Made by a program: the position numbers and the translations under genes. From Acidimicrobiales bacterium (GTDB lineage Bacteria; Actinomycetota; Acidimicrobiia; Acidimicrobiales; RAAP-2): a DNA stretch of 41,926 bases. Below the pieces are notes generated by a model. The model had not been told where the DNA came from. It searched no databases and saw only the letters and a program-made list of their open reading frames with translations. Shown in pieces: positions 115-16,755 of this stretch; within the stretch, counting starts at the first letter, position 1, and each line of letters opens with the position of its first letter. Location: the NCBI GenBank assembly GCA_017883105.1, contig JADGOF010000001.1:1-41926 (forward strand), in the 5' to 3' direction.

Positions 115-250
115 CCTGCCAGGCGCCGGGCGTGCTTGCGCTCCGCGAGCACATCCGACGTGCCGTTCTGCGATGCGGCTAGGGAGGCGACGCCCGTCGT
201 TATGGCGCTGCGTTCTGTACCGCCTCGACGGCGCAGTACGCCGATTCGGG
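115..250 (+). repeat. Intergenic repeat family, copy A
   Basis: Contains block GTGCTTGCG-CTC-CGCGAGC (132-150), core GTGCCGTTCTGCG (160-172), then ..CGTCGTTATGGCGC.. and ..CTCGACGGCGCAGTACGCC... Alignable by eye with copies B-F. Confidence 0.7.
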
Positions 251-466
251 GTGTGACATCCCTCGCCACCCCCAGTCCCTGCGGTCTCCGGCGAACGTTA
301 TGTGCGCCGGGGAAGCCCATCCGGCAACCTTGCTGCTTGCGAGAGTTTCCTGCGCCCGGAACAACACGAGTGGGCCACCGGATCACCCTCAATCGATCCC
401 AATTTCCTCCCGTCTCGACGGGTTTCCCGAAGTGACAATCCCCGTCCTGGAACCGAACCCCTGGAC

Positions 467-1927
467 CTACGAGGAACCATGCATGTCGGTCACGACAACC
501 GAAGTGAAAAGTCCAGAGCTCCTCAGCGCCATCGCATACTCACTGACCTGAGACGTCGAACCGACGAACGTCCAGTCCAGCACCGCGCCGACGTTGGCAA
601 TCGCACCTCCAGGCAACGTCACCGGGACGGACCTCGTGGTGTCCTGGACTGATGAGGGTGCCGAATAGCCGGACGTATTGGCTAGCCCGTACTCCTTCGC
701 TAACTGAGTCTGCAGCGCCTCCAGCTGGGAGTAGGGCACGGCGAGCTTTGCGGTGGCCGTGATCTTCCCGGACAACGTGACTTGCTGAGGAACCGAGAGA
801 TCCCCTGGAAGGGCGCTGGACGGCACAACTGTGCTCGTGCCGGTGGGGTCAATCCAGCGAATAGAAATGCCAGCCACACCACCCTCGGTGTCCAGACTCG
901 GCGTCGGCGGTGAAGCCAGGTACGCCGCCCCGATGCCCATGTAGGCAGACGGTGCGGGTACGTCTCGAGCCTCGAGGAGTGATCCTGTAGACGGATCGAC
1001 GATGATGACGCTGGTGCCCGTTGGGGATGTGCCGCTGAAGCCGACCCCGGTGGCACCCGTGTGGGTGGATATCGTGCCGAGGCCCTGAATCCCTGGCATC
1101 AAAGCCAGTGCGCCATAGAGGGCTGAGTCAAGTGCCGGACCACCCCCGGCGACAGGCCCGATGAGGAGAACTACTGCTCGCTCAAAGCCCGAGGCCTGAG
1201 CTCCGTCCGAGGTCATCTGATTCAACGCCGGAATTGGTGTCGTGCCCGTCACCAACTCACGTGCCAGCCCTACCGGATCAGTGGGAAGAGCCGACGCATC
1301 AATGGTGCCCGTTGCACCGCCGAAGCCGATTGGTGCTGAGCCACCATCTGCGCTGCTGGTGCAGCTCGTGACGGGCTGCACTGTCGGAGCGATCACCATG
1401 CCAGCAGCGTGCCACGCCGTTTGGTTGGCGGGAGTGGCGAACGTAGCCGGCCCTGTGGTGGCCGAGATGCAGTCATTCCCATACGCGTCAGACCAGAGCC
1501 TGACCGTTGCCGCAACCGTGGCTTCCGCTCCAGGAGTGGGGGTCGCCCCGATCTGGTTGACTTGGCCGCTGAGCGACACTTGCTGTTCGGTCGAAAGCCA
1601 CTGGCCCTTGGTGAGCTGAGGGGCCGCCTGGCTGGCGGCATTCGACGCGATCTGCTGCAGTTGTGCGGCCGCGGCGACTGGCTCGTGTTGTCCGGCTGAA
1701 GGCATGAAGACCACAATCAGAAGGGCAGCAAGCCCAACGGCAACGGTTCCACCAAGCGCGGCAAGACGTGGGACGTGCCGGACCCGGCGAGTTCGTTTCG
1801 TTTGCGCACTTTCGTGTTCCCAGTCTCGCCCTTCCAATTCCGACAGAGATGGGGACGGTGGCGCCGCATTCATCAGCTCAGAGATCACCGATCGGATCTG
1901 TTCGTCGACTTCGTCAGTCAAGGGCAT
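467..1927 (-). CDS. Membrane-anchored protein downstream of the ECF sigma gene (putative anti-sigma or sigma-associated partner)
   Basis: 486-aa ORF. Its ATG at 1927 overlaps the sigma gene stop (1914-1916) by 14 nt. Short N-terminal segment, one hydrophobic helix (LAALGGTVAVGLAALLIVVFM), then a long Ala/Gly/Thr/Ser-rich extracytoplasmic part. Function inferred from position only. Confidence 0.55.
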   Translation of the reverse strand: MPLTDEVDEQIRSVISELMNAAPPSPSLSELEGRDWEHESAQTKRTRRVRHVPRLAALGGTVAVGLAALLIVVFMPSAGQHEPVAAAAQLQQIASNAASQAAPQLTKGQWLSTEQQVSLSGQVNQIGATPTPGAEATVAATVRLWSDAYGNDCISATTGPATFATPANQTAWHAAGMVIAPTVQPVTSCTSSADGGSAPIGFGGATGTIDASALPTDPVGLARELVTGTTPIPALNQMTSDGAQASGFERAVVLLIGPVAGGGPALDSALYGALALMPGIQGLGTISTHTGATGVGFSGTSPTGTSVIIVDPSTGSLLEARDVPAPSAYMGIGAAYLASPPTPSLDTEGGVAGISIRWIDPTGTSTVVPSSALPGDLSVPQQVTLSGKITATAKLAVPYSQLEALQTQLAKEYGLANTSGYSAPSSVQDTTRSVPVTLPGGAIANVGAVLDWTFVGSTSQVSEYAMALRSSGLFTSVVVTDMHGSS

Positions 1928-2402
1928 TGAGGGCCTCCTTCAGGCGAGACTTTCCGCGAGCGAGGTGACGTCTCACCGATCCGTCACTGATGTCGAGGAG
2001 TTTGGCGATGGCAGCAGGATTGAGGTCATCCCAGTAGGTGAGGACGATGACTGCCCGCTGTTGAATGCTGAGCCTCATCACGGCGGCGAGCACCTCTGGC
2101 CTCACATCAGGCGGATCAATGCTCTCCGGCTGTGCAGCAACTTCCTCACGCACGCGGCGGCGCCGAGCCGAACGATGGAACTCGGCCGCCTTGTTGTAGA
2201 CGCTTCGGTACAAATACGAGCGCTTTTGTGTGACGGACGGCCAGCTCCTGGAGCTGAGGCAACTCAGGACCGCTTCTGAAACGACGTCGGCGGCATTCTG
2301 CGGACCAACGAGTCCCGTAGCGAAGCGTGTCAGGTCGTCAGCGTGTTTTCGATACAACTCGCTGTCAGCAATGTCCACACCCATAAGATGCCGCCGATCC
2401 AC
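1914..2402 (-). CDS. ECF-type RNA polymerase sigma-70 family factor
   Basis: 162 aa. Region-2-like segment (..SYLYRSVYNKAAEFHR..) and region-4 HTH (LSIQQRAVIVLTYWDDLNPAAIAKLLDISDGSVRRHLARGKSRL). GTG start at 2402; alternative ATG at 2384. Confidence 0.88.
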   Translation of the reverse strand: MDRRHLMGVDIADSELYRKHADDLTRFATGLVGPQNAADVVSEAVLSCLSSRSWPSVTQKRSYLYRSVYNKAAEFHRSARRRRVREEVAAQPESIDPPDVRPEVLAAVMRLSIQQRAVIVLTYWDDLNPAAIAKLLDISDGSVRRHLARGKSRLKEALNALD

Positions 2403-2687
2403 CTTTTGTGTGACACACCCGGAGGAATTCTCGACGACCCACGCCCTCAGGCGTGGGCTGGGCCATCAATCCACCCGAGGATGGTAGGCATCTCGATTCC
2501 GTCATACGTGATCGACGATGACTCCGAACGCCGGCTTGGGGATCGATATCTGGCACGGTCCTGGGGCGCCCGCTTGCTTCAGCAAGCGGTCCAGATCGCT
2601 CCATCTGAGCGGTCGGGCCGCATATTGCAATTGGCCCCCGAGCACGCCAGATCGACGGCTCTGGATTGTCGAGTCCGATTTCCGAAC

Positions 2688-2830
2688 GTCAGGTTCGATG
2701 CCGCGAGTCGATCGCACGAACGCAACCGACGTGCCGTTCTGCGCAGCGGCCGCGATGGCGCCAGCCGTCGTTCTGGCGCGTAGTTCGGCGCCCGAGCGGG
2801 TCCACTCCATCGCCGACTCCGGTGCGATCG
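2688..2830 (+). repeat. Intergenic repeat family, copy B
   Basis: Core GTGCCGTTCTGCG at 2731-2743, followed by GCGATGGCGCCAGCCGTCGTTCTGGCGCGTAGTTCGGCGCCCGAGCGGGTCCACTCCATCGCC. Shares the upstream GTC(A/G)GGTTCGAT block with copy E. Confidence 0.75.
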
Positions 2831-2934
2831 GCGTCACGGACAGCACCGGCAGCCAAGCGCTGTGACGCGCTGTGAATCCTCGGGAATACCCGGTGGCCGG
2901 TGGCCGCCAACATTGACACCTACGATCGATTGGC

Positions 2935-3756
2935 GTGACGAAGGACAAGTTCACTGGCGGAGATCAGCGCTACCTACGCGATGCTCAATACCGAGACCCT
3001 TCCAGGTTGACGGCCAGGGCTGACCTCCACGCCAAGTACGGGACCGCCGACGTGCGCTGGTTTCCTTGGATGGCTGGCCAGATCGAATGGCCTTCCGATG
3101 GAGTCATTCTGGAGGTTGGTTGCGGCCCCGGTTGGCTGTGGAGCGAGGCCGCCTCCCAACTTCCGAGCGGCCTACGGCTCATGCTCACCGACCTTTCTGC
3201 AGGCATGGTGGATGCCGCCCTTGACCGAGTATCCGGACTTTTTGAGATGACAGCGGGAAGCGAGGCCGATGCTCAGCTACTGCCCTTTTGCAACCGTGTG
3301 TTCGACGTGGTTGTCGCCAACCACATGCTGTATCACGTTCCTCAGCCCGGATTGGCGGTCAGCGAGTTCGCTCGAACTCTGCGACCTGATGGCGTTCTCA
3401 TCGCAGCGACTGTCGGCCCAGAGCATCTGCGGGAGCTGTGGGAGATTCGCTCCGAAGTCTTCGAGGAAGAGCCCGTCAATCGCACTGCCGCGGTGTTCGG
3501 CGCGATAACGGGGCTTCCGATTATCCAGCAGGGATTCTCCAGCGTCGAGTGGCGCGCCTACGAGGATCACTTGCACTGCACGAATCCTGACGCTGTCATC
3601 GCCTTCATGACATCGACTCCCCCAGCCGAGGATGCCTCGGAGCAACAACTCCGGAGCCTTCATGTCGCAGTCCGCCGACGTTTCGAAAAGGGTGGTGGGT
3701 CGTTCGATATAGCCAAGGAGGTCGGAATCTTCGTCGCCAGAGATCCATACCAATAG
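2935..3756 (+). CDS. Class I SAM-dependent methyltransferase (substrate unknown)
   Basis: 273 aa. Motif I LEVGCGPGWLW, acidic loop LTDLSAGMV, and VVANHMLYHV, typical of Methyltransf_11/25-type small-molecule methyltransferases. GTG start. Confidence 0.85.
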   Translation: MTKDKFTGGDQRYLRDAQYRDPSRLTARADLHAKYGTADVRWFPWMAGQIEWPSDGVILEVGCGPGWLWSEAASQLPSGLRLMLTDLSAGMVDAALDRVSGLFEMTAGSEADAQLLPFCNRVFDVVVANHMLYHVPQPGLAVSEFARTLRPDGVLIAATVGPEHLRELWEIRSEVFEEEPVNRTAAVFGAITGLPIIQQGFSSVEWRAYEDHLHCTNPDAVIAFMTSTPPAEDASEQQLRSLHVAVRRRFEKGGGSFDIAKEVGIFVARDPYQ

Positions 3757-3839
3757 GTTCGCTCAGAAGACCGTCTCACTGTTGGGTCTTCGGTGTCGTG
3801 GCCGTGACTGATCGCCGGTTCACTATGTGCCGTGTATCG

Positions 3840-3985
3840 CCTGACGCCGAGCATGCTTGCGGAACGCGACCACACGCGTAGGTGCCGTTCTGCGCTACGC
3901 CACGATGGCGCAGATCGTCCTTCTGGCGTGGTGTTCTGTGCTGGGCAAGAGGCACGAGATCGCCGAATCGAGCGGGTGCGGGACG
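3840..3985 (+). repeat. Intergenic repeat family, copy C
   Basis: CCTGACGCCGAG..ATGCTTGCG-GAA-CGCGACC (3853-3871), core GTGCCGTTCTGCG (3882-3894), ..GTCCTTCTGGCGTGG.., ..TCGAGCGGGTGCG (3968-3980). Confidence 0.7.
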
Positions 3986-4067
3986 AAGGGGGGCCGTTGT
4001 CGGACCCCGTATAGTTCCGCACGATTAGTCCCGGGTTTCCTCCATCTCCTCCCAGGGATGCCGCTGC

Positions 4068-5876
4068 CTAGGCCGTCGCCTGATGTACCGCGATTTCAAG
4101 TTCTCTAAGCGTGCCCACAGAACGCATTGACGAGAAGATCACCTGCGTGCAAGGTCCTGGGAGAACGTAGGGAACGTCGGGACACACAACTATTCCACGA
4201 ATGTCGACGCTCGGTGGGAGTGTCACCTTCAATAACGATGGCTTTGCCCTGATCGTTGCGACCTTCTTGCGCCAGCTCGCCTCCGCCTGTTCGACAGCTT
4301 GCCGGTGATTCCTCACGGCACGGAAGTCTCCGTATTCAAGTTCGGCAGACGTTGTCCAAGCCTTCGCGTCCACTAGGACAACTACTCGGTCCTTGCATGC
4401 AATCCCGTCTATGTCTGTAATGGTCCTGCCTCGGTCCTTGATCGGCTTGCCGACAAGATGGCGGAGTGACTCTGGAGGACGCCATGGGCTCGCGTCGATT
4501 ACAGCTTGGACGTCATGTTCAAACCGCTCGGCCCAGACATTCGCATCGGGACCATCCGCCTGCCTTGGAACCGCATAAGAGAGAACCCGCGTGGCATAGA
4601 TCAAGTCGACGCGAGCGATCCCCCCTGCGGGTAAGACGATAGCGGGTTCAGGTGTAACCCAATTCGAGAACTCAATCGGGGTGCTAGTGATCTCATTCAT
4701 GACCACATCGGGTTCCCAGGTGGAGACATACTGCGACGCGACTCGTTCCCAACGGGCAAGCCCCGCCTCGATATCGCCAATCGGAAGGTCCAAGTAGCCC
4801 CAGCTGAGCCATGATCCGCGGGGAGCTATCCGCCGTTTCTTTCCACCTTGGATGGTGCGCATGGCCGTCCACAGAGTGGCGGCTGCCCCAAGCGCCGATA
4901 ACGACGGTGGCGTGCTTAGTGATGTGGGGTTGAAAACACCGGAGCGCGACAACAGCCCGGGTTCGCACGTCGTGAGATCGAAAAACCGACGGGGCCCTCG
5001 GTAAATGTGGGCGTCCAAGCGATTCAACCAGCCGGGTATAACGGCATCAGGGGTATGCAATTCATCAATTGTTGCTTCTAGTTGGCGACCACTTCCCTGG
5101 CGCTCGGTATCCGTTCCAAATCCGGCAAAGCCTCTGCTGTCGTAAAGGAGAAGCGCTTCTGTAATGCGGCGATCGAGGGCAACGCCGACACCGACGAATG
5201 TCGGTCCGAGAAGGTGGCTTAGGATCATTCCCTTCGCCACCGAACGGTAGCAACGCCCGACTTGCCACATTGCAGTACCAATCATGATCAGATGATGCAG
5301 ATCCTCAAGTACGCGGTCGTCGGGGTCGGAAGGCATCGCCTCCAGCTGCGCGTAGTCCACAGAGCAAGTTGACTCGCGCGTCAAGAGTTCAAGAAACCAT
5401 CGCGGCGCCAACGTCGTGTGGTCGAGCGGTGTACGGCGGGTACGCCGCGTAATCGTCACCCATTCAGCCGGTGACCGTCGACCCACGACGTCTGAGGCGT
5501 TGCTCTTCAGGCGCCAATAGAGCTCAGCAAGCTCCTCGGTCCCTTCTTGGCCGCTGAAATTCAGTGGTCCAACCTCTTCAAGCTCCGCTCTGATCGAAAG
5601 GAGTTCCGTCGTGACCTCCCCGGGGAACGATGCGACGGATTCTCCCGAGAAGAAGGAGCGATTGATGAGTCTGTCTAACTTGTCATGGACGAAGTCATGC
5701 CGGCGCGATATGGGAAAGACAAAGCGGTCCGGGTTTTCGCGGCGCGGTGGCTCATATCTGACATCATCCGGGATGGTTATCTTACCGCTGCCTTGCGGGG
5801 GAAGTTCCGCCATCGCAAGTTCGGCATCTCTCTGTGCGCGAAGTCGCGCCGCTCGGCGAGCGGCGTCAGCCGACAC
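4068..5876 (-). CDS. 602-aa protein: unrecognised ~440-aa N-terminal region plus a C-terminal NERD-like / PD-(D/E)xK nuclease-like domain
   Basis: The C-terminal segment ..FEHDVQAVIDASPW..GRTITDIDGIACKDRVVVLVDAKAW.. matches the NERD pattern (E..V...L / (E/D)ID..+ / hhhh(E/D)xK). No NTPase motif seen. By eye the gene is less GC-rich than the T4SS genes. Confidence 0.55.
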   Translation of the reverse strand: MSADAARRAARLRAQRDAELAMAELPPQGSGKITIPDDVRYEPPRRENPDRFVFPISRRHDFVHDKLDRLINRSFFSGESVASFPGEVTTELLSIRAELEEVGPLNFSGQEGTEELAELYWRLKSNASDVVGRRSPAEWVTITRRTRRTPLDHTTLAPRWFLELLTRESTCSVDYAQLEAMPSDPDDRVLEDLHHLIMIGTAMWQVGRCYRSVAKGMILSHLLGPTFVGVGVALDRRITEALLLYDSRGFAGFGTDTERQGSGRQLEATIDELHTPDAVIPGWLNRLDAHIYRGPRRFFDLTTCEPGLLSRSGVFNPTSLSTPPSLSALGAAATLWTAMRTIQGGKKRRIAPRGSWLSWGYLDLPIGDIEAGLARWERVASQYVSTWEPDVVMNEITSTPIEFSNWVTPEPAIVLPAGGIARVDLIYATRVLSYAVPRQADGPDANVWAERFEHDVQAVIDASPWRPPESLRHLVGKPIKDRGRTITDIDGIACKDRVVVLVDAKAWTTSAELEYGDFRAVRNHRQAVEQAEASWRKKVATIRAKPSLLKVTLPPSVDIRGIVVCPDVPYVLPGPCTQVIFSSMRSVGTLRELEIAVHQATA

Positions 5877-6026
5877 CGGGAGCGATCCGCTGTCTCGGTC
5901 GTGTGTTCACAGGCGCCATTGCCGTGCGATTATCCCACGTCATCGCCTCGTCATCCCGCGTGTCACCACAGTGTTCTGTGGGACCACAGCGGCAGGACGC
6001 CACATCTGGACGGGGATTCGCGTAGA

Positions 6027-6203
6027 GCTGTCTGTCCGGTCGGCGACGTAACTTCGACGACAAACGGCATGGAATGCATCGGTGTCCTTTGGGGCTACGG
6101 GAGCGCCGAAGAGCTCGAGGCCGCCGGAGCTGCTGCCGTCGTCAGGACTCCAGCTGAGCTCCGGCGCCTTCTCCTGGCCAGAGTGACGATCACCTCCGAA
6201 TGA
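6027..6203 (+). pseudogene. 3' remnant of a HAD-superfamily phosphatase gene (truncated, decayed)
   Basis: The frame of ORF 5685-6203 ends ..AVCPVGDVTSTTNGMECIGVLWGYGSAEELEAAGAAAVVRTPAELRRLL. This resembles the HAD motif IV region plus C-terminal tail (..VGD....AG...IGV.WGYGS.EEL..AGA...V..P.EL..LL). The upstream part of the frame has no HAD motifs I-III. Confidence 0.5.
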
Positions 6204-6334
6204 CCGAAACGATCGTCCTCGCCGGCTGATCCACCACCTGCGACGCAGAATGACGGCCCACCGTGCGACGCTGCCAGCTCATTGCGCACGCCGAACCGGC
6301 GTTCGGCACCCCTGTCAATGACAGCGGACTGTCC

Positions 6335-6460
6335 CAGAACGCGCGCCTTCAAGCCCGCTCGCGCACGCCCGCATGTGCCGTTCGTGGGCGGCAACTACCT
6401 CGACCACGGCCGAGGGCGGGACCACACCCCGCTCAGATCCGAAGTGCCGACCATCGCCGG
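6335..6460 (+). repeat. Intergenic repeat family, copy F (most divergent)
   Basis: ..GCCCGCTCGCGCACGCCCGCATGTGCCGTTCGTGGGCGG.. (core-like at 6375-6391), then ..CCGAGGGCGGGACCAC..CCATCGCCGG, comparable to the CCGAGCGGGTCCAC..CATCGCCG block of copy B. Confidence 0.45.
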
Positions 6461-6606
6461 GGCTCGCTTCCGCCCCTTCCATGCATCTTGAACAGGAATA
6501 ACGCTGCAAGGGCGCAGATTGCGACCGCGGAACGTTTGGCCTGCCAGTGGCTGCTCGTCAAGCACAACGGTCTGCGAGTCCCCAAGTCCGAGGCCGCCCT
6601 GGAATG

Positions 6607-8821: not shown

Positions 8822-9138
8822 GCGGCACCCCTGTCGGTCGGGGTTGACGTTGCCGGTCCGATCGTCGCGTACGGATCCGACTGCCCGCTGGGCTTCCAAG
8901 GTCTCAAGTGCGGACCCGGACGCAGCGCTCCGATTCCGTCGTCCTCGCGACGTGGGACCCGCTGCGTCCGCTGGGCGCGGGAGGAGAGAGGCAGAGGATC
9001 GTCGTCAGCGCCGAGGACGGCGATCGGGGGCTCGTGTGCCGGTGGGCTCTCGAATCCGACAATCGACCCGGGGGCATCCCTGACGGTCGGTCGGTCGGCA
9101 TGGAACTGGTCGGTCGTGAAGGAGTTCATGTCGGCCAC
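8818..9138 (-). CDS. Hypothetical protein, first gene of the HTH operon
   Basis: 106-aa ORF (GTG 9138 or ATG 9129). Its stop overlaps the start of the HTH gene (ATGA). No recognised domain; Pro/Arg-rich, so coding status is less certain. Confidence 0.4.
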   Translation of the reverse strand: MADMNSFTTDQFHADRPTVRDAPGSIVGFESPPAHEPPIAVLGADDDPLPLSSRAQRTQRVPRREDDGIGALRPGPHLRPWKPSGQSDPYATIGPATSTPTDRGAA

Positions 9139-9149
9139 GATGACGGTCG

Positions 9150-9418
9150 GGGCTCACAGATCCCCTCATCAAATGGCTCACAACCGGAGAAAGTTCGATA
9201 AATCCCGTTCGGCGGCCAAAGTGCCAGGTCGGAGACCCGCCGACTCCGGATGATTACGAAGTCCCAGCTCAAGGGGCTCACAAATCTTGTTGTGAGGGGT
9301 TCGCAACGCGGGAGCTGATCTGGCTCTCCGGACCCACGCTGACGGGGCGCCGCGACGTCGAAGTCGACGTCATGGCAGCTCAGGGGGCTCACAACTCAGT
9401 TTGTGAACCCCTCACAAA
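9150..9418. repeat. Iteron array I: GGGCTCACA(A/G) direct copies plus inverted copies
   Basis: Direct copies at 9150-9159, 9174-9183 (tGGCTCACAA), 9274-9283 and 9385-9394. Inverted copies TTGTGAGGGG at 9290-9299 and TTGTGAACCC at 9401-9410. CCCTCACAAA at 9409-9418. Confidence 0.75.
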
Positions 9419-9786
9419 CGTGTCGGGGCGCGTCGCGGTCGAAGCGGCCACCGCCGATCTCGCCGTGCCGCATTCGGCGGGGAACCACGCCGACGCCGTT
9501 CGGCGCTCGGCGTGAGGGACCTGGTGCGGCATTCCGGTTGGTGGACCCGTTCGACCCTTCAGTTGGTTTCACACCGTTGCCAGCCGTCAAACGTCGCTCC
9601 GGAATACGGCTCGACCCCGGAAGTCGCCGGCACGCCGGCGCCAGGGTCGGCCTTTATGTCCTCGCTCGACCTTCGGCCGCCCCTTGACTGCTGGCTCCGG
9701 CGTGGGCAATCGGCTTCCAGCGATTGATGACGGACCAGGCGGGGCGAGAAGCGCCCCACCCGTCACCAATCACAAGGAGAACAGCC

Positions 9787-10205
9787 ATGACCATCACAAC
9801 CACCACCATCGTGGGCAACCTGACCAGGGACCCGGAGATCCGCTACACCCGGGACGGCCAGGCCACCACGTCCCTGTCGGTGGCCGTCCACCGCAGGTGG
9901 CAGGACTGCACCACCAAGGAGTGGGAGGAGTCCGCCTCGTTCTTCGACGTCGTCTGCTGGCGTGACCTGGCCGAGAACGTGGCCCTCTCAGCCTGACCAA
10001 GGGCGCACGGGTCGTGGTCGCCGGTCGCCTGGAGCAACGGAGCTGGGAGAGCGACGAGGGGGAGAAGCGGTCCAAGGTCGAGATCGTGGCCGACGAGATC
10101 GGTGCCAGCCTCCGGTTCGCCACCGTGGACATCCACAAGGTCCAGCGCGCAGCCATCGCCGACGAGACCGCCGACGAGCCTGCCGACGAGGCGGCGTCCG
10201 CCTGA
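9787..10205 (+). pseudogene. ssb: Single-stranded DNA-binding protein gene interrupted by a frameshift near 9985-9990
   Basis: AAGGAG RBS 8 nt before the ATG at 9787. MTITTTTIVGNLTRDPEIRYTRDGQATTSLSVAV..FFDVVCWRDLAENVALS stops at TGA 9994-9996. The OB fold continues in another frame (LSLTKGARVVVAGRLEQRSWESDEGEKRSKVEIVADEIGASLRF.. to 10205). Confidence 0.8.
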
Positions 10206-10212
10206 CCGGACC

Positions 10213-10239
10213 GGAGGGGTCGGGACTCCCGACCCCTCC
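10213..10239 (+). terminator. GC-rich hairpin downstream of ssb-1
   Basis: GGAGGGGTCGGGA-C-TCCCGACCCCTCC is a near-perfect 13-nt inverted repeat starting 8 nt after the stop codon. Confidence 0.55.
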
Positions 10240-10464
10240 ACAACCCCCGTTTCTCCACATTTCCCCAGACGTTCCCTTCCGGGCGCCGTTGTGCGACCCA
10301 GTTCTTATGGTGAGCGATCCATCAGCATCCCGACCGGGCCGCTCTCTCCGAGTGGCCCGGTCGTCGTCCGTTGGTGCCCTGCTCGCCCCAGCCCAGTGGT
10401 CCGGCGATCGCCGTCTCCCGGGACCCTGCGATTTCCACCAGCAACCCACAAGAAAGGAACAACG

Positions 10465-10815
10465 ATGAACACTGTGACCATCACCGGCCGCTTCACTGCC
10501 GATCCGGAACTGAGGTTCACCTCCGGGACCGGCAAGGCGGTCGCCACAGTCAGGGTGGCCCTCAACGACCAGGGTCGGGACAAGGCGGTCTTCGTCGACC
10601 TCGAGTCCTGGGAGAAGACGGCGGAGTTCATCGCCGAGTACGGCACGAAGGGCCGCCTCTTCGAGGCAACCGCCCGCCTGGCCCTTGACCAGTGGACCGA
10701 CGCCGAGGGGGGACAGCACTCCAAGCACTACCTCGTCACCGGCCCCTACGAATTCCGGTTCCTGGACAAGGCCACCGGCACCGACGAGCCCGAGGCCCCG
10801 GCCGAAGATGTCTGA
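10465..10815 (+). CDS. ssb: Single-stranded DNA-binding protein (intact, short)
   Basis: 116 aa from the ATG at 10465. MNTVTITGRFTADPELRFTSGTGKAVATVRVALND..AVFVDLESWEKTAEFIAEYGTKGRLFEATARLALDQWTD is a canonical SSB OB-fold pattern with an acidic tail. Confidence 0.85.
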   Translation: MNTVTITGRFTADPELRFTSGTGKAVATVRVALNDQGRDKAVFVDLESWEKTAEFIAEYGTKGRLFEATARLALDQWTDAEGGQHSKHYLVTGPYEFRFLDKATGTDEPEAPAEDV

Positions 10816-10836
10816 TCGGGTGAGTCCAGACCGAAG

Positions 10837-10863
10837 GAGGGGGACCCCATCGGGGTCCCCCTC
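10837..10863. terminator. Bidirectional hairpin between convergent ssb-2 and the regulator gene
   Basis: GAGGGGGACCCC-ATC-GGGGTCCCCCTC is a perfect 12-bp stem followed by TTCT. Confidence 0.65.
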
Positions 10864-10894
10864 TTCTACGTTCCGGCCACAGTTGGCCGGCGGG

Positions 10895-11626
10895 TCAGGC
10901 CACCAGCTGGGTAATGGCGGACCGCCGTTGGCGCCGGAGCTGGGAGACGGGCTCCCCGGCGAGCTCGGACAACTCGGCCATGGTCAGGCCGAGCACACTC
11001 GTGGCGTAGAGCACGGCGGCGTCGGCCGCGGCCAAACCGTCACCGGTCGCCTCGGCGAGGGCATGGGCCAACAGCTCCTCGCCGGACCGATCGCCCCCTG
11101 CTCGGAACACGTCCATGCCTTCGGGGGCCGTGCCTCGCCGGGAGCGGTGGCGCCGCTCAGTCGTCTGGAGGGTCCGGAGTCGGGTTCGGGTCGCAGACAG
11201 CAGGTCGCCGGCGGCGTAGGGGCGCACCGTCCCGGTCCACACGGTGATCTGCTCCCAGAGGCACGAGATGGCGTCGGAAAGGAAGCCGTCGACGTCCTGC
11301 CACGGACCTTCGGAGATGTCGAACCGTTTCACCAGCGCCAGGACGCCGGGAAGGAGTGCCTGGACGATGGCCCGGGGGACGAGCTCGTCGGTCCCGGCCC
11401 TCGCCAGCATGGCGGCGATCACCGTGGCCGCCTCGTTACGGGTGAGGCGACCTGCCGCAGGCGACAGGGCGGCGACCAACCCGGCGAGGTCGTCGGCATC
11501 GAGTCGGGCGATCGCCGGCTCACTGTCGGCCAGGCGCAGATAGGCGGTGCGCGACGGGGGAGCAGTACCGAGGACCTGCCATTCACGTCGGAGCCGTCGG
11601 GTCGTGGGGGTGTCCATGGCCGACAC
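10895..11626 (-). CDS. Putative regulator with a sigma-70 region-4-like C-terminal HTH
   Basis: 243 aa (GTG 11626 or ATG 11617). The C-terminus ..LGLTMAELSELAGEPVSQLRRQRRSAITQLVA resembles a region-4/LuxR-type HTH. Monocistronic between iteron array II and the hairpin. Confidence 0.55.
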   Translation of the reverse strand: MSAMDTPTTRRLRREWQVLGTAPPSRTAYLRLADSEPAIARLDADDLAGLVAALSPAAGRLTRNEAATVIAAMLARAGTDELVPRAIVQALLPGVLALVKRFDISEGPWQDVDGFLSDAISCLWEQITVWTGTVRPYAAGDLLSATRTRLRTLQTTERRHRSRRGTAPEGMDVFRAGGDRSGEELLAHALAEATGDGLAAADAAVLYATSVLGLTMAELSELAGEPVSQLRRQRRSAITQLVA

Positions 11627-11637
11627 GATGAACGTGA

Positions 11638-11904
11638 GGGTTCACAGATCCCCTCACAGAACCCCTCATCACCGAAGATTTCCGAATTGAGCGCCGTCGG
11701 CGACGCGATCGTCCGCCGCGGTGGGCGAGCGAGCCAAGAACGGGCATACGCCCAGCCCAGAGGGTTCACAAATTCTGTGGCGGGCCCGATCACAGACTCG
11801 AGGCAGGGTTCACAAGTTCGACGCCTCAACCTGCCGGCGGATGTGCCGGAAACGGCATCGGCGCAGGTGGGAGGGTTCACAAAATCGCCAGGGGGGGTTC
11901 ACAA
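11638..11904 (+). repeat. Iteron array II: five direct copies of GGGTTCACA(A/G)
   Basis: Copies start at 11638, 11762, 11806, 11873 and 11895 (spacings 124, 44, 67, 22 bp). Degenerate CCCTCACAGA/CCCTCATCAC copies lie at 11651-11674. Confidence 0.8.
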
Positions 11905-12251
11905 ACGGCGAATCACCTCAATCGCGCTCCGTGCCCCTTCCCCTTCGGTGCGAACAATCGCCCGGCACGCCGACCGCCGCCGGACGGCGGCCGGCAATGC
12001 GATGGGCGCCGCGGAACGCTGTGCCTTCGTGCTCACCCAGCTCGGAGAGGACATACGGCCTGGCCACAGCGTCCGTTGTCGCCATGCTTCGACGCAGCTG
12101 AGCGGCTCCACCGAAGTGTTCGTCGCGTCCCGACGCAGGGGAATCGTCGGAAACTTCAGAAGAACGGAAAGCCCGGAGGGCTCGCTCTCCAATTGCCCGT
12201 CGCTCGGACTGCACTCGTTCGCGGGGCTGCGGAAGAGCGGGAGCAAGATGG

Positions 12252-12272
12252 ACGATCCGCTAAGCGGATCGT
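12252..12272 (+). promoter_or_regulatory. Perfect 9-bp inverted repeat upstream of mobC (oriT hairpin candidate)
   Basis: ACGATCCGC-TAA-GCGGATCGT lies ~70 nt upstream of the mobC-like start, in the 440-bp gene-free stretch after iteron array II. Confidence 0.3.
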
Positions 12273-12342
12273 GGCGGCGTTGCCGTTGGCCCCGGTCAGG
12301 ACCTGTCCCCGAGGTCTCCTCGTGGTCGCTGCGCTGGCGGAA

Positions 12343-12810
12343 ATGAAGCGGTCAGTGACCGACACAGCCGGCGACGGCGTGAGGGTGATCACCGGGAGCG
12401 CGGCTCGGATGAGGCGATCTCCCGGGGGGCGGAGCCGGGTGCTCTTTGTCCGCCTCACCGAGGAGGAAGATCGGCAAATCCGTGACCTAGCCGCGAAGGC
12501 GGGCCTCTCCGGCCAACGGTTCCTCGTCGAGGCCGCACTGTCTGGTTCGGCCGAGAGCGCAGCGACCCTTCGCCAGGCAGCGGTCGAAGCACGGGCCACC
12601 CGGGTCGTCCTGAAGGGTGTGGCGAACAATCTCAACCAGCTGACGAAATGGGCGAACGCCAACCATGCCCTCCCTGCCCATCTCGATCGCCTGTTGGACG
12701 ATCTCGGCCGGGCGGTCATGGCCGTGGAGCAGTCGGCTGCAATGCGCGGCATGGCGGCCGGTGGGGACGTGCCAACGATTGATGCCGGGACTACGGAGGG
12801 GCCGCGATGA
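12343..12810 (+). CDS. mobC: MobC-family relaxosome accessory protein
   Basis: ..RVLFVRLTEEEDRQIRDLAAKAGLSGQRFLVEAAL.. and ..VLKGVANNLNQLTKWANA.. form the characteristic MobC (GxxNNLNQLA) pattern. The stop overlaps the relaxase start (ATGA 12807-12810). Start uncertain (ATG 12343; the ORF is open from 12076). Confidence 0.8.
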   Translation: MKRSVTDTAGDGVRVITGSAARMRRSPGGRSRVLFVRLTEEEDRQIRDLAAKAGLSGQRFLVEAALSGSAESAATLRQAAVEARATRVVLKGVANNLNQLTKWANANHALPAHLDRLLDDLGRAVMAVEQSAAMRGMAAGGDVPTIDAGTTEGPR

Positions 12811-14321
12811 TCGCCAAAGTCACCCAAGGGGCAAGCGGCCGGGCTCTCCTCCGCTACCTCTTCGGGCCGGGCCGGGCGAACGAGCACACCGATCAGCGGG
12901 TGATCACGTCAGGAATCGTGATGGGAGTGGAGGAGGGGCGGGCCCTGACTGCGGCCGAGATCGCAGACCTGGGTACAGCACTCGAGGCCGCCAATGACTC
13001 CTATCGAACCAATCCCGCCAATGGGCACATCTGGCACCTCTCGCTCTCGCTCCCTTCCACTGATCTCCAACTGACCGACGACCAGTGGGCAGAAATCGCC
13101 CACAAGGCCGTGGAGGCCATCGGATTCGAGCGTGAGGGACTGGAGCCCGCCGCGTGGGTGGCCGTGAGGCACGGAACAAGCTCCACCGGCAACCAACACA
13201 TCCACATAGCGGCGTCGCTTGTCCGGGTTGATGGCAGCAGGGTGGACATCTGGCAGTCCAAGCGGACCCTCTCCCGAATGTGTGCCGAGATCGAGCACGC
13301 CTATGGCTTGACCCTCGTCGAGGGTCGAGAGGGCCGGGGAGTGCCTGGGCTGAGCAGGGCCGAACTGGAGCGGACCGCACGAGAGCAGCGGGCAGAGCCT
13401 CCACGGCTCACCCTGGCCCGCATGGTGCGGGAGGCATCGGTCGCCTCCAAGGGCGAGGCCGAGTTTGTCCGACGGCTCCGAGGGAGTGGGGCCCTCGTGC
13501 GGCCCCGCTTCGAGCCCGGGGGGAAAGAGGCGGTGGTCGGCTACTCGGTGGCACTCAGGATAGGGGATGGTGACAAGCCGATCTGGTTCGGCGGCGGGAA
13601 GCTGGCAAAGGACCTGACGTTGCCCAACCTGCGACAGTTCTGGGAGCAGTCAGGAGGGGAACGGAAGTCAGCGGTCGTCGAATGGGCCGCCACCAGGTCG
13701 GGTTTGCTGGGCAGAGAAGCCGTGCTTGGTGACCCGGAGGACTGGCAACGGGCGGTAGTGGGCATCGAGAGGTCGGTCGGAAGACTGATTGCCGTACCGG
13801 TGTCCGACCTCGCTGCGTGGAGGGGGGCGGCACGAGAAGCCGCCGGGGTGTTTTCCGCTTTGTCGAGACGCTTCGAGGGAGACAGCCCCGGACCGATGGC
13901 GGATGCTGCAGAGGCGTTGGGTCGATCGGCACAGAGCCGACCAGAGGATCCACCGCCGAGCCGGGCGGCTGTTCGTGACTTCCGGGGGATAGCGGCGATC
14001 GTGGCGCAATCCGAACTAGGGAACGACTCTCCGATTGCCTGGGCGATGTTGCTCAGCCAATTGGGAAGAACGCTCGACGCCATCGGTGATGCCCATGCGG
14101 TCCGAGGTGAATCGCAGATGGCGAAGACGCTCGGGGAGCGTCTGTCGGCTGAGATCCTCGAGCTGCACGGACGATTTGAGGCAAGCTCGAGCCAGGGTCT
14201 GCATCCCGGTGAGCAGACGCAGGACGCTCGCGCCGCTGCAACGATGCACGAGATCCCTAAGAGCCAACCCGGACGTCATCGCAGCCGCGGGCAAAACCAA
14301 GCTCGCAGCATCGAGCGCTGA
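12807..14321 (+). CDS. Relaxase / mobilisation nuclease (MobA/VirD2-type domain)
   Basis: 504 aa. N-terminal MIAKVTQGASGRALLRYLFGPG.., ..HIWHLSLSLP.. and the histidine triad region ..VRHGTSSTGNQHIHIAASLV.. are typical of the relaxase/mobilisation nuclease domain. Confidence 0.9.
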   Translation: MIAKVTQGASGRALLRYLFGPGRANEHTDQRVITSGIVMGVEEGRALTAAEIADLGTALEAANDSYRTNPANGHIWHLSLSLPSTDLQLTDDQWAEIAHKAVEAIGFEREGLEPAAWVAVRHGTSSTGNQHIHIAASLVRVDGSRVDIWQSKRTLSRMCAEIEHAYGLTLVEGREGRGVPGLSRAELERTAREQRAEPPRLTLARMVREASVASKGEAEFVRRLRGSGALVRPRFEPGGKEAVVGYSVALRIGDGDKPIWFGGGKLAKDLTLPNLRQFWEQSGGERKSAVVEWAATRSGLLGREAVLGDPEDWQRAVVGIERSVGRLIAVPVSDLAAWRGAAREAAGVFSALSRRFEGDSPGPMADAAEALGRSAQSRPEDPPPSRAAVRDFRGIAAIVAQSELGNDSPIAWAMLLSQLGRTLDAIGDAHAVRGESQMAKTLGERLSAEILELHGRFEASSSQGLHPGEQTQDARAAATMHEIPKSQPGRHRSRGQNQARSIER

Positions 14322-14359
14322 ACGCTGGGGTGCTCCGGCCTTTCGGCCACCGCGTTTAG

Positions 14360-14525
14360 CCCGACGCCGAGGGTGCTTGCGAAACGCGAGCGCACGCGTA
14401 GGTGCCGATATGTGCTGTTCGGTGAGGTCGCAACCATGTTGTACCGCGCCGGAATTCTGTGCGCGCGTTCGTTACCTCCGGGATGATCTCACTCACGAAC
14501 CCGGATCCGAGCGGGCATCGCTAGA
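14360..14525 (+). repeat. Intergenic repeat family, copy D (with internal insertion)
   Basis: CCCGACGCCGAGGGTGCTTGCG-AAA-CGCGAGCGCACGCGTAGGTGCCGATATGTGC.. is near-identical to copy C over ~45 nt. It continues ..GAATTCTGTGCGCGCGTTCG.. and ..TCCGAGCGGGCATCGC. Confidence 0.65.
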
Positions 14526-14675
14526 ACCGCTTCGTTATGTGAAGGCACGACTTGGTGAGAACGATTGGCATTTGGGGTGACGTTCCAGTTTGGAGCGGGT
14601 CCGCGCGACCGATGGACGGGCAGCAACGAGCCGGACCCGAACCCTTGCGGACGAACTTGTGCCTACGCTTGAGCC

Positions 14676-15611
14676 ATGCGGCTCAACACCGAGGAACGGC
14701 GCCGGCTCCGCCTCATGGAGTGGCTGATCGAACAGGATCCAGGGCTGCAGAGCGTTGGACCGCTCTACGAAGGCCAGCCCCGCTCGTTCGACCTTTCCCG
14801 GGGAGACGTGAAGCACCTCGAGGCGGACGGCTTCGTGACCAGCTATTTTGCCGGCGGCATGCTCGCCCGAGCCGAGGCGACCTCCGACGGCCGTGCCTGG
14901 TTCGACGATATTCGAGTCCATCGGGACAACAAGATCGAGCGGCGGTGGGCTTGCCGAATGGGACTCGTCGAGTGGCTCGACCACGTCGGTGCCGCCTCTG
15001 TGCGCACGCTCGCGGCGCTGGATGGTTTTGGCGGAGACGTGCGCGCCGACTTCTACGGCCAGCCATTCACTGCTGACGAAATGGACGCTGCCGCCGCTTG
15101 GCTTCGGGACAGAGGTCTCATCGATGGCATTTCCGTGGAGGAGCTCCTCGGGCCGGTCAGAGCCCACCTCACGAACGCAGGCCTCGACTGCGTCGAGAAT
15201 TGCGGCGGGGACGTCCGCCGATATGTATCCGAAAGCGAGCGGGCAAGGCTGGAAGGGCCCAACATCAGAATCACCGCCGGGGGACACGTCCAATTTGCTA
15301 CGGGGTCAGGATCCAACCAGCACATCGAGGTCAACGAGGCCGCGGCGCAGATCCGACTGGAGGTCTCTGGGCTGGTCGAAATTCTAAGAGCCTTGGGCGT
15401 CGCCGACGCCGAAGAACTCGAGGCACTCTACGAAGATGCCGTCGTCGGCCTGAGCGGTGGCGAACCCACGGAGGAACCGTTCCATCGATTCTCTGTCCGC
15501 GCACGCAGCCTTGCCGGGAAGACTGGCAACATCGCTGCGACGGCAGCCGTCTCGACCCTCGTGACCACCCTCGTCACCAACGCTCAGCATCTGATCGCGG
15601 GTTTTCACTGA
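14676..15611 (+). CDS. Hypothetical protein (311 aa)
   Basis: ATG start and GC3-rich codons. The N-terminal half has two similar ..(E/M)WL....G..// L...G(L/F)(I/V).G.. modules (possibly tandem winged-helix). The C-terminal tail is hydrophobic/Thr-rich. No family recognised. Confidence 0.6.
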   Translation: MRLNTEERRRLRLMEWLIEQDPGLQSVGPLYEGQPRSFDLSRGDVKHLEADGFVTSYFAGGMLARAEATSDGRAWFDDIRVHRDNKIERRWACRMGLVEWLDHVGAASVRTLAALDGFGGDVRADFYGQPFTADEMDAAAAWLRDRGLIDGISVEELLGPVRAHLTNAGLDCVENCGGDVRRYVSESERARLEGPNIRITAGGHVQFATGSGSNQHIEVNEAAAQIRLEVSGLVEILRALGVADAEELEALYEDAVVGLSGGEPTEEPFHRFSVRARSLAGKTGNIAATAAVSTLVTTLVTNAQHLIAGFH

Positions 15612-15703
15612 GCACGATGTCCGGCGACGAAGCCGAGTAGGCAGCCGGTCACGACCGAGGATGATCCGGTCTTCCCCGTACCCGAATGACAGAAAGGGCA
15701 CGC

Positions 15704-16396
15704 TTACCCGAGCCAGTACATATGGTCGATCCCCTTCATGGTGACCGAGATGTTCGATGGGAGGCCAGCCGTGGCGAGCGTCTGATAGGTCGCCAAGTAG
15801 CGGAGCGTGTGTTCGAAATAGACAGAGTTGGCTTTGTCCGCCACCATCGCGGCCCGGAGTGGCTTTGCAGCCGCTGCATAGTCAAGACGGTGAAGTCGTG
15901 CGTGCTCATCCGTGTTGCCGTCGAAGATGGGGACGAGATTCGGTGCGGCGGGCCAAAGAAACTTTGATGCGAAGGACGTCGCCCGGCCTGAGTTCGGGAA
16001 CGCACCTTGGAGAATCGTGACGATCGCCTGGTGGGCGATTACGACCGCGGCCATGGCGGTAGCATTTGGCGTCGCGAACGCGGCCAGAGAAGTGACCACA
16101 TCCGTCACGGTCGACCACTGCGACTGGAGTGCCTTGGCGGCAACGAAGTCGGCATTCGAGCCGATCGTCCGATTGAGTTGGGCCCGGTACACCCCGTGCA
16201 TGAACACGACTCGGAGGTGGATGTCCTCGAACGACCCGGAGCTGTGCGTCCGCACTAGGTTGACCAGCTCGGCGTCGACATGCTGCCAGTCGGTCAGATA
16301 CGACGCCCACGCCGACTGGTAACGCTGAGCGAGTGTGGGCTTGGCGAGTTGCGTCACGAATCGCCTCCCATCGAAGCTACGGCCAGCACTCGGCAT
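15704..16396 (-). CDS. Hypothetical protein (230 aa from the internal ATG)
   Basis: ORF open to 16576, but its first 60 codons are Pro/Arg/Gly-rich. ATG at 16396 (MPSAGRSF..) is taken as the start. Convergent with the 311-aa gene. No family recognised with confidence. Confidence 0.5.
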   Translation of the reverse strand: MPSAGRSFDGRRFVTQLAKPTLAQRYQSAWASYLTDWQHVDAELVNLVRTHSSGSFEDIHLRVVFMHGVYRAQLNRTIGSNADFVAAKALQSQWSTVTDVVTSLAAFATPNATAMAAVVIAHQAIVTILQGAFPNSGRATSFASKFLWPAAPNLVPIFDGNTDEHARLHRLDYAAAAKPLRAAMVADKANSVYFEHTLRYLATYQTLATAGLPSNISVTMKGIDHMYWLG

Positions 16397-16589
16397 TCGT
16401 GGATCTGGTTTGGGGGTTAGTACGAAGGTCGTGGGAATCCGCCCACATCGTATGGAGTCTCGCGGTCCACGGCCACCGGGGCCTCCCTGACGCCTCCGCG
16501 GCGAAGGCGGCGACGCTCCCGAATACCGAGACACGCGGGAGAAGGTCAACGGACGGATTGAGTCAGGCGTATCCAAGATGACCCCGGAT

Positions 16590-16725
16590 GTCGGGTTCGA
16601 TATTGCTGCCGGACCAGCTGATGGAGGATGCCGGGAAGGCCGGTCTGCGCTGAGGTCATGGTGGCGGCGGTCGTTCTGGCGCGTCGTTCGGCACTCGAGC
16701 GGGTGCGCTCAATGGCCGCCTGTAG
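16590..16725 (+). repeat. Intergenic repeat family, copy E
   Basis: GTCGGGTTCGAT.. then ..GCCGGTCTGCGCTGAGGTCATGGTGGCGGCGGTCGTTCTGGCGCGTCGTTCGGCACTCGAGCGGGTGCGCTCAATGGCCGCC. Aligns with copy B over ~80 nt. Confidence 0.7.
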
Positions 16726-16755
16726 CAAGGCGCCCGCGATGTGAAGACAGCGAAG

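Follow-up and report, generated by a model that had tools for sequence, protein, structure and literature searches.

Direct repeats with a 14-bp box as candidate junction sites for gene cassettes in conjugative elements and islands of Acidimicrobiales

Introduction

In a 41,926-nucleotide (nt) stretch of DNA from an Acidimicrobiales bacterium (assembly GCA_017883105.1, contig JADGOF010000001.1; the whole stretch is called the window here), copies of one intergenic repeat lie in the same orientation between genes of unrelated function. What are these repeats, and how did the genes between them come to be there? A preliminary description, made from the sequence of the window, had proposed either scars of serial site-specific insertion or an element resembling a miniature inverted-repeat transposable element (MITE). 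We have followed the repeat through genomes and metagenome contigs and mapped the points at which related loci cease to be alike. We conclude, with slightly more confidence than doubt, that each repeat is a composite att-like junction at which site-specific recombination has inserted, excised or exchanged a cassette in the cargo of conjugative elements and genomic islands of Acidimicrobiales.

Results

The repeat and its family

Five copies of the repeat, A to E, are real, and all lie on the plus strand. Self-blastn of the 42-kb window links A-B, A-C, B-C, B-E and C-D, each plus/plus and with E values of 1e-12 to 7e-5 in that search space, and a separate repeat detection gives the same families. 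An nhmmer profile of the five copies has exactly five matches in the window, again all on the plus strand (95-276, 2662-2857, 3816-4009, 14336-14531 and 16567-16750). The preliminary description had listed six co-oriented intergenic copies. Its alignments, the common orientation and the intergenic position relative to Pfam-supported genes are borne out for A to E, and its sixth copy, F (6335-6460), is rejected: the five-copy profile matches it over no more than 24 nt, with E=4.4, at E<=1 it is missed by a profile built on ~50 members of the family, and its GTGCCGTTCGTGG is a 10/13 match with no homology in the flanks. The sequence blocks quoted there hold up: A (160-172), B (2731-2743) and C (3882-3894) all carry GTGCCGTTCTGCG exactly, D (GTGCCGATATGTG, 14402) and E (AGGCCGGTCTGCG, 16637) carry degenerate forms, GTCGTTCTGGCGCG is exact in B and E, and the two types of upstream block, A/C/D and B/E, are both real and both recurrent across the family. 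The repeat is longer than had been thought, copy A extending over about 75-385 (Table 1).

Alignment of the family reveals a conserved core of ~60 bp containing three direct CGTTCTG boxes, with interchangeable arms on either side. The core begins with box 1 (GTGCCGTTCTGCGC, 14 bp), which is followed by a variable stretch of ~20 nt, then by box 2 (CCGTCGTTCTGGCGCG), 35 nt downstream of box 1, and by box 3 (GTCGTTCTGTGC), another 15 nt on. The left arm is ~85 bp long and of at least two types (A/C/D and B/E); the right arm is ~95 bp in its short form and ~220 bp in its long form, with at least two or three types, the long form itself having at least two. The whole element measures 180-330 nt. 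Box 2 is 90-99% conserved compared to 35-75% in the arms, although the first scan pattern left box 2 not fully specified, which implies that the core is constrained independently of how the copies were found. A protein-coding gene or pseudogene family is ruled out by indels of 1 nt and 7 nt inside the conserved region, by reading frames that differ from copy to copy, by fully invariant runs of 13-16 nt in the core and by flat variability over the codon phases (0.14/0.14/0.15 in the first core run; 0.08/0.165/0.137 in the second, a 23-column run). The 1-nt indels and the lack of 3-periodicity thus uphold the earlier view that the repeat is non-coding. Minus-strand open reading frames (ORFs) that overlap copies cluster together because the DNA is conserved, not because it is coding.

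A genome scan with a sequence pattern, using one genome per species, returned at least 116 loci. Some of these are chance matches inside genes, such as the PhzF motif EVPFCGHATVA in Streptomyces, and are not family members; true homologues are found in ~30 of the loci, among the matches listed. Those with readable titles are metagenome-assembled genomes (MAGs) of Acidimicrobiales/Acidimicrobiaceae from bog, palsa, permafrost and soil and a few other Actinomycetota MAGs. A scan of metagenome contigs added at least 120 further loci. The repeat forms a large family of at least 229 copies in at least 146 loci, nearly all from uncultured Acidimicrobiales of peat and permafrost. Against the PLSDB plasmids, the first 20 kb of the window gave no megablast match and copy A no blastn match; the relaxase alone has relatives there, at ~40% identity. 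In the literature, the box sequences were not found in any paper, and none ties Acidimicrobiia to integrons or attC. The repeat family is apparently undescribed so far.

Breakpoints between related loci are enriched at the core

Synteny segments of at least 88% identity and at least 500 nt define 139 breakpoints between related loci, which we compared to 1000 randomisations. Within -40 to +60 of box 1 there are 38 of them where 4.0 are expected (the maximum in the randomisations being 11), a roughly 9-fold enrichment, and 71 of the 139 fall inside the element compared to 13.7 expected. The repeats thus mark module boundaries in relatives. Many of the pairs come from related peat samples, so the independent events are fewer than the pairs; we estimate at least 15.

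The fitted pairs locate the switch within the core. When the right-hand side is shared (96-99.5% identity), 13 of 17 pairs are diverged through -1, and their identity starts at the G that opens box 1 (GTGCC). When the left-hand side is shared, mismatches start at +8 to +17 in the eight pairs mapped across box 1; of the other left-shared pairs, one is shared as far as +88 and one has an ambiguous fit. Altogether the crossover interval overlaps box 1 in 21 of 30 pairs. The variable segment +14 to +35 and boxes 2 and 3 always go with the right-hand module, and none of the 30 fitted pairs has a crossover clearly within boxes 2 and 3, though these are equally conserved. The left arm is thus passed on together with the upstream module, and all sequence from box 1 to the right together with the downstream module. 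In most mapped pairs, the alignments place strand exchange inside box 1.

Several loci illustrate this pattern. In L152, L205 and L228 the right sides are 99.2-99.5% identical and the left sides unrelated, giving three left contexts for one right-hand side. Through the relaxase gene and the left arm of copy D, the window is 92-95% identical to L078 and L147, and divergence sets in from +8 of box 1; L239 has ~40 nt after the relaxase stop in common with the window and no repeat there. The left arm of copy B and its flank are common to L024 (86%) as far as about +50. At copy E, everything to the right is common to L004 and nothing to the left. The segment 16639-19625, which holds a helicase cassette, matches L004, L202 and L119 at 91-92%, and the homology starts inside copy E. 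This cassette occurs in at least three left-hand contexts, namely the window, L004/L202 and L119, where it is 99.4% identical to the L004/L202 copy and stands behind yet another neighbour. In L004/L202 it has a repeat copy on both sides, and the right-hand repeat of this module is found only there.

Orientation, spacing and content of the arrays

All copies within a locus have one orientation in 57 of 57 multi-copy loci, of which 16 are from genomes (45 copies) and 41 from metagenomes (98 copies). If orientation were random, the probability of this would be about 2^-86. The start-to-start spacing of consecutive copies is 0.47-5.3 kb (median ~1.5 kb), with the 10.5-kb C-D interval of the window as the exception, and 14 of 27 intervals between neighbouring copies contain exactly one gene. 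The 150 flanking ORFs belong to 120 different Pfam families; examples are an alpha/beta hydrolase, a major facilitator superfamily (MFS) transporter, a desaturase, an adenylate cyclase, a radical-SAM enzyme, a CobQ-like amidotransferase and an FAD monooxygenase. The right-hand gene is on the plus strand in 25 cases and on the minus strand in 21, the left-hand gene in 31 and 16, respectively. Orientation linked to replication is ruled out, as GC skew has no consistent link to that of the repeat (17 of 29 loci are positive).

Two comparisons between loci concern the modules themselves. A 3.5-kb module with 90% identity between L008 (1446-4982) and L022 (4010-7576) lies directly downstream of a plus-oriented repeat in both, in opposite orientations; modules can therefore sit either way beside a junction. 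L049 (5168-6209) carries a 1041-nt insertion with one 335-amino-acid (aa) ORF relative to L055 (6723-6728), the two loci being otherwise 97-99.5% identical. This insertion is away from any repeat copy and may be an insertion sequence or an independent gene gain.

A candidate mechanism and the points against it

If the repeats are att-like junctions, a circularised cassette with one complete site would insert Campbell-style into a resident site. Campbell insertion of a one-site circle yields direct repeats, which would explain why all sites are direct. Boxes 2 and 3 and the arms would serve as accessory or arm-type binding sites, and the enzyme would be a dedicated site-specific recombinase encoded elsewhere, by analogy most likely of the tyrosine type. 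The scheme would carry the logic of attP, attL and attR over to mostly single-gene cassettes that lack an integrase of their own.

The weak point of this scheme is the enzyme. There is no recombinase in the 42-kb window, and tyrosine recombinases are encoded in only 8 of ~146 loci, at no fixed distance or orientation, where they score 28-31 bits compared to the 265-bit cutoff of TIGR02249. With a gamma-delta-resolvase query, one serine recombinase was found in 146 loci. All-against-all clustering of the flanking ORFs yielded generic families (ABC transporter/GntR modules and secreted repeat proteins) and tyrosine integrases only. The best candidate for the cognate enzyme, the L189 type of integrase, was rejected: it is a tRNA-Lys island integrase, and at four other loci with homologues of it the repeat is missing within 10 kb. 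The search for a cognate recombinase thus gave none in the window and none specifically tied to the repeat at related loci, and the term "site-specific" rests on breakpoint mapping, not on an enzyme. Classical tyrosine-recombinase core sites have dyad symmetry around a 6-8-bp spacer; on direct reading, box 1 lacks clear symmetry of this kind.

The mapping also contains points that do not fit. In 6 of the 30 fitted pairs the crossover interval lies right of +14, and in three the switch is left of box 1; two of these end at -4 and -1, adjoining the box, and one (L175/L188) at -33, where the automatic fit conflicts with the printed alignment, in which the first mismatch is at +14. Two pairs remain alike over the entire core or element (L033/L159 from about -50; L163/L225 to +88), and the pair of copy E with L004 resembles a switch near +31, although box 1 of copy E is degenerate. 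The contigs are short, and we saw in them no presence/absence or replacement polymorphism of a cassette with both flanks conserved, no circular intermediate and no array ends. Finally, box 1 belonged to both search patterns, so that its invariance is partly due to ascertainment, a bias of which box 2 in the first scan is largely free. Of the serial site-specific insertion proposed earlier, the orientation, the co-inheritance of the arms, the breakpoint enrichment and the crossovers at box 1 are in favour, and the missing cognate recombinase is not.

A separate observation concerns the chromosomal setting of such integrases. In L246-L249 and L189, a tRNA-Arg/His/Lys cluster beside a ParA-like gene forms a conserved integration hot spot on Acidimicrobiales chromosomes. 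Its islands carry a phage-type integrase at tRNA-Lys(CTT), and the island in L246 has a TrwC-type relaxase, SSB and AbiEii.

Alternative explanations

Neither a recombinase nor an obligatory relaxase partner was found, and the chief alternative is therefore that functional binding sites undergo homologous recombination with one another. The copies would then be a dispersed operator or binding platform for a protein of the element or the host, and the shuffling a by-product of homologous recombination between them. The core does resemble three direct protein-binding boxes without dyad symmetry, no association of a recombinase with the repeat was found, any dispersed repeat promotes Campbell-type exchange, and a few crossovers do lie outside box 1, at about +50, +88 and +200. 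We nevertheless consider this explanation unlikely, since crossovers are concentrated in a 14-bp tract, shorter than the usual minimal efficient processing segment of RecA, and bypass the almost invariant ~25-bp tract that boxes 2 and 3 form next to it. Those two boxes form an identical tract of equal length, which recombination of the RecA type should use as well. A binding site would have no need of strict direct orientation in 57 of 57 loci, and the strands of the flanking genes given above do not suggest a promoter-like placement. On direct reading no sigma-70-like promoter and none of the extracytoplasmic function (ECF) type is legible in the GC-rich core; by eye, sigma-70 and ECF (GGAAC-N17-CGT) motifs with proper spacing are absent from the core and the end of the long arm. 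Another explanation makes the copies nick sites for an HUH enzyme (a relaxase or a Rep-type protein), similar to an origin of transfer (oriT), with processing that starts at one copy and stops at the next co-oriented copy, so that single cassettes would be excised or transferred, and a crossover exactly at the nick. The window is indeed conjugative, with MobC/NikA, a MOBP-like relaxase, a VirD4 coupling protein, a VirB4-like ATPase and ssb; copy D directly follows the relaxase gene both here and in L078; and in the A/C/D left arm a 9-bp inverted repeat precedes box 1 by 7 nt, an oriT-like layout. We take the resemblance of TTCTG/C in box 1 to the MOBP nick motif ATCCTG/Y (the slash marks the nick) as a lead only; the motif YATCCTG/Y is absent at the repeats and upstream of mobC. 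Recombination between oriT copies mediated by a relaxase is documented (PMC4902927, PMC3264647). The relatives of the window's relaxase speak against this explanation: those with 71-78% identity (L241-L245) have no repeat within 10 kb, one with 84% identity has three repeat copies in its cargo, and three of four related backbones have no repeat. The relaxase is not the partner of the repeat, at least not obligatorily. In most arrays the 8-kb locus encodes no relaxase, and the probable real oriT region, upstream of mobC, is not similar to the repeat. Compensatory changes do not preserve the inverted repeat, which is missing from the B/E-type arm, and single-stranded hairpins are no more stable than those of shuffled sequences. 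As ssb reads toward the presumed oriT, the transferred strand would be the minus strand, opposite to the repeat. Overall, we regard an oriT-like role as improbable.

Two further explanations carry very little probability, and about equally little. One is a non-autonomous transposable element, either MITE-like or of the repetitive extragenic palindromic (REP) kind or a single-stranded derivative of IS200/IS605, inserted repeatedly between genes. Such an origin would suit many dispersed intergenic copies of 180-330 nt with a mosaic make-up like that of bacterial interspersed mosaic elements (BIMEs), and the shared orientation could come from single-stranded transposition into one strand. In 60 long-form copies, however, the ends show no excess of terminal inverted repeats (own versus mismatched ends, 5.93 vs 5.91) or of direct repeats as in target-site duplications (5.65 vs 5.64); conservation is highest in the centre and the ends vary, opposite to what a transposon would show; the two halves are inherited with different neighbours; there are no conserved subterminal hairpins; and orientation is unlinked to GC skew. 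The MITE-like reading offered earlier is thus largely refuted. The other is a folded nucleic acid, that is, a small or cis-regulatory RNA or a single-stranded promoter or priming site of the Frpo/ssi kind in the leading region of a plasmid. The repeat is strand-specific and lies near ssb on a conjugative element, and an RNAalifold run on five sequences hinted at a G-U-rich central hairpin on the plus strand. On neither strand do 50 copies yield a consensus structure (-3.2 and -0.7 kcal/mol) or covariation, the -3.2 kcal/mol fold having 0 covarying and 4 invariant pairs. Folded as RNA or as DNA, the copies of the window do not improve on dinucleotide shuffles (z -1.4 to +1.3), copy A as a 331-nt DNA having z=0.00 on the plus and +0.77 on the minus strand when examined for an Frpo/ssi hairpin. 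No Rfam match at E<=1 is found in the region, and no tRNA or tmRNA at the repeats. The exchangeable arms are incompatible with long-range pairing.

Modules and backbone of the window

Table 1. Repeat copies, the modules that they bound and transfer genes in the window
Feature	Position	Strand	Description
Copy A	75..385	+	Long form (~310 nt); nhmmer E=3.7e-37; left arm A/C/D type
Copy A, family blastn extents	-92 to +220 from box 1		Aligned with long forms such as L074, L024, L049
Copy A, inverted repeat	132-152		GTGCTTGCG-CTC-CGCGAGCAC, within left arm
Copy A, boxes	160-173; 195-208; 209-220		Box 1 GTGCCGTTCTGCGA; box 2 CGTCGTTATGGCGC; box 3 TGCGTTCTGTAC
Copy A, long right arm	~365-380		End near ..TGCGCCCGGAACAACAC
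Copy B	2637..2865	+	nhmmer E=2.8e-40; left arm B/E type (GGATTGTCGAGTCCGATTTCCGAACGTCAGGTTCGATG); between divergent ECF sigma gene (1914-2402, -) and S-adenosylmethionine (SAM) methyltransferase gene (2935-3756, +)
Copy B, boxes	2731-2744; 2766-2780; 2781-2792		Box 1; box 2; box 3
Copy C	3799..3985	+	Short form; nhmmer E=2.2e-43; blastn to A, B, D; left arm A/C/D type; between convergent methyltransferase gene and 602-aa gene (4068-5876, -)
Copy C, boxes	3882-3895; 3916-3930; 3931-3941		Box 1; box 2 CGTCCTTCTGGCGTG; box 3
Copy D	14350..14465	+	nhmmer E=1.2e-33 (full profile), 2.4e-8 (core profile); begins ~30-40 nt past relaxase stop codon (14321); left arm intact, right part decayed
Copy D, box 1	14402-14415		Degenerate, GTGCCGATATGTGC
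Copy E	16584..16725	+	nhmmer E=2.3e-31; left arm B/E type; left junction of helicase cassette
Copy E, boxes	16637-16650; 16670-16683		Box 1 degenerate, AGGCCGGTCTGCGC; box 2 GTCGTTCTGGCGCG; box 3 intact
A-B module	467..2402	-	ECF sigma factor (1914-2402) and CU044_5270-family partner (467-1927); Pfam, NCBIfam
B-C module	2935..3756	+	Class I SAM-dependent methyltransferase, single-gene cassette; Pfam
D-E module	14676..16576		Two genes: 14676-15611 (+), 15704-16576 (-, weak DUF6308 match); Pfam, Logan gene calls
Helicase cassette	16639..19625	-	UvrD-type helicase with Top1-type zinc ribbon (16756-19437) and small upstream ORF; Pfam, synteny
MobC/NikA	12076-12810
MOBP-like relaxase	12807-14321
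VirD4-type coupling protein	31955-33685
VirB4-like ATPase	33696-35198

The repeats of the window bound three modules, one with the sigma factor and its partner, one with the methyltransferase and one with two genes, and copy E is in addition the left junction of the helicase module (Table 1). One module per consecutive pair of copies had been proposed, and this holds for A-B, B-C and D-E; the units placed between C and F and after F fall with copy F. The 10.5-kb C-D interval contains several modules, including the backbone ssb fragments, mobC/nikA and the relaxase. The repeats therefore do not partition cargo only, as had been supposed, and C and D are not consecutive cassette boundaries. Among the gene labels given earlier, ECF sigma factor, SAM methyltransferase, AbiEi/AbiEii and UvrD-type helicase are confirmed by Pfam, and "NERD-like" and "HAD scar" have no Pfam match. 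The window also encodes an SLT/NlpC-P60 hydrolase and an 1805-aa helicase/methylase, and it is part of a conjugative element. Short-read contigs of SRR10489815 with the exact window sequence stop close to two of the copies, L001 16 nt left of box 1 of copy B (~2715) and L002 29 nt left of box 1 of copy D (~14373). The assembly graph thus branches at these junctions, as expected if the sample has other copies or alternative junctions.

The ssb region (9787-10815, plus strand) is called in three pieces in the Logan assembly of the same sequence, with SSB Pfam matches at 9787-9996, 10014-10205 and 10465-10815, which suggests that ssb in the presumed leading region is frameshifted or decaying. A 27-nt near-perfect palindrome (96% self-complementary) is found within this region, at 10213-10239. 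Iteron-like boxes GGG(T/C)TCACAA(A/C) form two clusters (9150-9420 and 11630-11910), with several boxes in each and in both orientations; identity between the 79-nt stretches 9112-9190 and 11600-11678 is 73%. Lying just upstream of mobC/nikA and the relaxase, the clusters flank the ssb fragments and are probably oriT, replication or partition iterons.

In loci with homologous relaxases (L239-L245, 71-84% identity), the site directly downstream of the relaxase is a cargo hot spot loaded with defence genes. L239 and L240 have NACHT and SIR2 there, and L245 a full operon of a cyclic-oligonucleotide-based antiphage signalling system (CBASS; SMODS, HORMA, TRIP13-like AAA and TIR-SAVED) together with DUF6308. 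L243 has several methyltransferases, and L241 has almost no cargo between the relaxase and a large helicase gene. A second, unrelated short repeat occurs in the window: 6240-6303 resembles 22905-22968 (70%), and 6298-6319 recurs inverted at 21198-21219 (91%). The homology of the AbiE module to L116 (95%) begins exactly at 6240, and this position may mark another kind of module boundary.

Discussion

The reading of the repeats as att-like junctions leads to a wider proposal, which we put forward tentatively and hold to be slightly less probable than otherwise. Acidimicrobiales would own a system of cassette capture and shuffling that is independent of integrons, with double-stranded att-like sites of ~180-330 bp, a 14-bp crossover box and three direct CGTTCTG boxes. 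The recombinase would not be encoded beside the arrays and may be of an unrecognised type, and in peat and permafrost communities the system would supply conjugative elements and islands with cargo genes for metabolism, regulation and defence against phages. There is a real chance that the recombinase, and hence the system, is new in kind.

Bacteria assemble and exchange adaptive genes to a large extent through gene-cassette systems, among them integrons and the dif modules of Acinetobacter. To our knowledge, those described so far are mainly proteobacterial or, in the case of dif modules, confined to one genus. With its mapped crossover points, the site family opens the lack of integrons in Actinobacteria to testing. 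It provides a search model for cataloguing cassettes in the abundant uncultured Acidimicrobiales of soil and peat, and it defines a 14-bp substrate with which phylogenetic profiling or biochemistry could trace the recombinase. Should the enzyme prove simple, it could give a new site-specific recombination tool for high-GC organisms. For the element in the window, the cargo (AbiE-adjacent, sigma-factor, methyltransferase and helicase modules) is organised in exchangeable units.

Integron arrays share several traits with those described here. In both, sites are co-oriented, mostly with one gene of very diverse function between them, cassettes are reshuffled between genomes at the sites, and arrays occur on mobile elements and on chromosomes; as in integrons, the site more often follows a gene on the same strand (31 vs 16). 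Co-orientation and a spacing of about one gene thus match, whereas ~40% of the genes in the repeat arrays are oppositely oriented. No IntI is encoded in the window, and the local tyrosine recombinases reach 31 bits at best, far from the TIGR02249 cutoff; clusters of attC sites lacking integron-integrases (CALINs) lack IntI by definition, so that its absence alone is not decisive. The sites themselves differ. The DNA of five copies, folded on both strands, gives z scores of -0.42 to +1.27 relative to shuffles, unlike the attC hairpin, and the attC boxes R'' (RYYYAAC) and R' (GTTRRRY) have no counterpart, GTT/AAC triplets occurring only inside the CGTTCTG boxes, which are direct and not inverted. 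An attC site measures 57-141 bp compared to 180-330 bp for the repeat, and it keeps its structure across genomes, whereas the repeat keeps its primary sequence. In attC the crossover is at the 3' edge and in the repeat it would be mid-site, which implies that both neighbours own an arm. Actinobacteria are reported to have no complete integrons, and why they lack them is an acknowledged open question (PMC9024848).

The dif modules of Acinetobacter likewise hold plasmid cargo, such as toxin-antitoxin and accessory genes, in discrete modules that are bounded by recombination sites and shuffled between replicons. The pdif sites are 28 bp long, with an 11-6-11 dyad and alternating orientation, whereas the repeat is 180-330 bp long, asymmetric and always direct, and its box 1 has no 11-6-11 dyad. 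The GC-rich, non-palindromic core is presumably unlike dif consensus sequences. The dif-module system has been called unique to Acinetobacter (PMC13141974). Its recombinase, XerC/XerD, is encoded away from the sites (PMC13141974, PMC6449649), and the arrays described here would share this trait.

Two other systems can be compared at the level of the site. On conjugative replicons, direct oriT sites of TrwC/R388 and of Mob02281/oriT of Bacillus thuringiensis recombine precisely at one phosphodiester by means of a conjugation enzyme (PMC3264647, PMC4902927). The repeat differs from these in that it is missing from several close relatives of the relaxase backbone, that most arrays have no relaxase nearby and that no conserved hairpin stands beside the presumed nick site. 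Tandem accretion of integrative elements at one att site, which leaves attL/attR hybrids of tyrosine-recombinase islands such as the integrative elements of actinomycetes, likewise produces direct repeats with an identity segment, arms owned by different neighbours and a fixed crossover point; the size of the repeat is attP-like (~200-300 bp), with internal direct repeats as possible arm-type sites, and arrays are found inside islands that adjoin tRNA genes. Here, in contrast, the units are single genes without an integrase of their own, the island integrase that we tested is unlinked to the repeat, the identity segment is not in a tRNA gene or another recognisable host gene, and up to 4-5 junctions occur within 8-17 kb. 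The arrays therefore resemble integron arrays and dif modules in their function, and tandemly accreted integrative elements in the logic of their sites.

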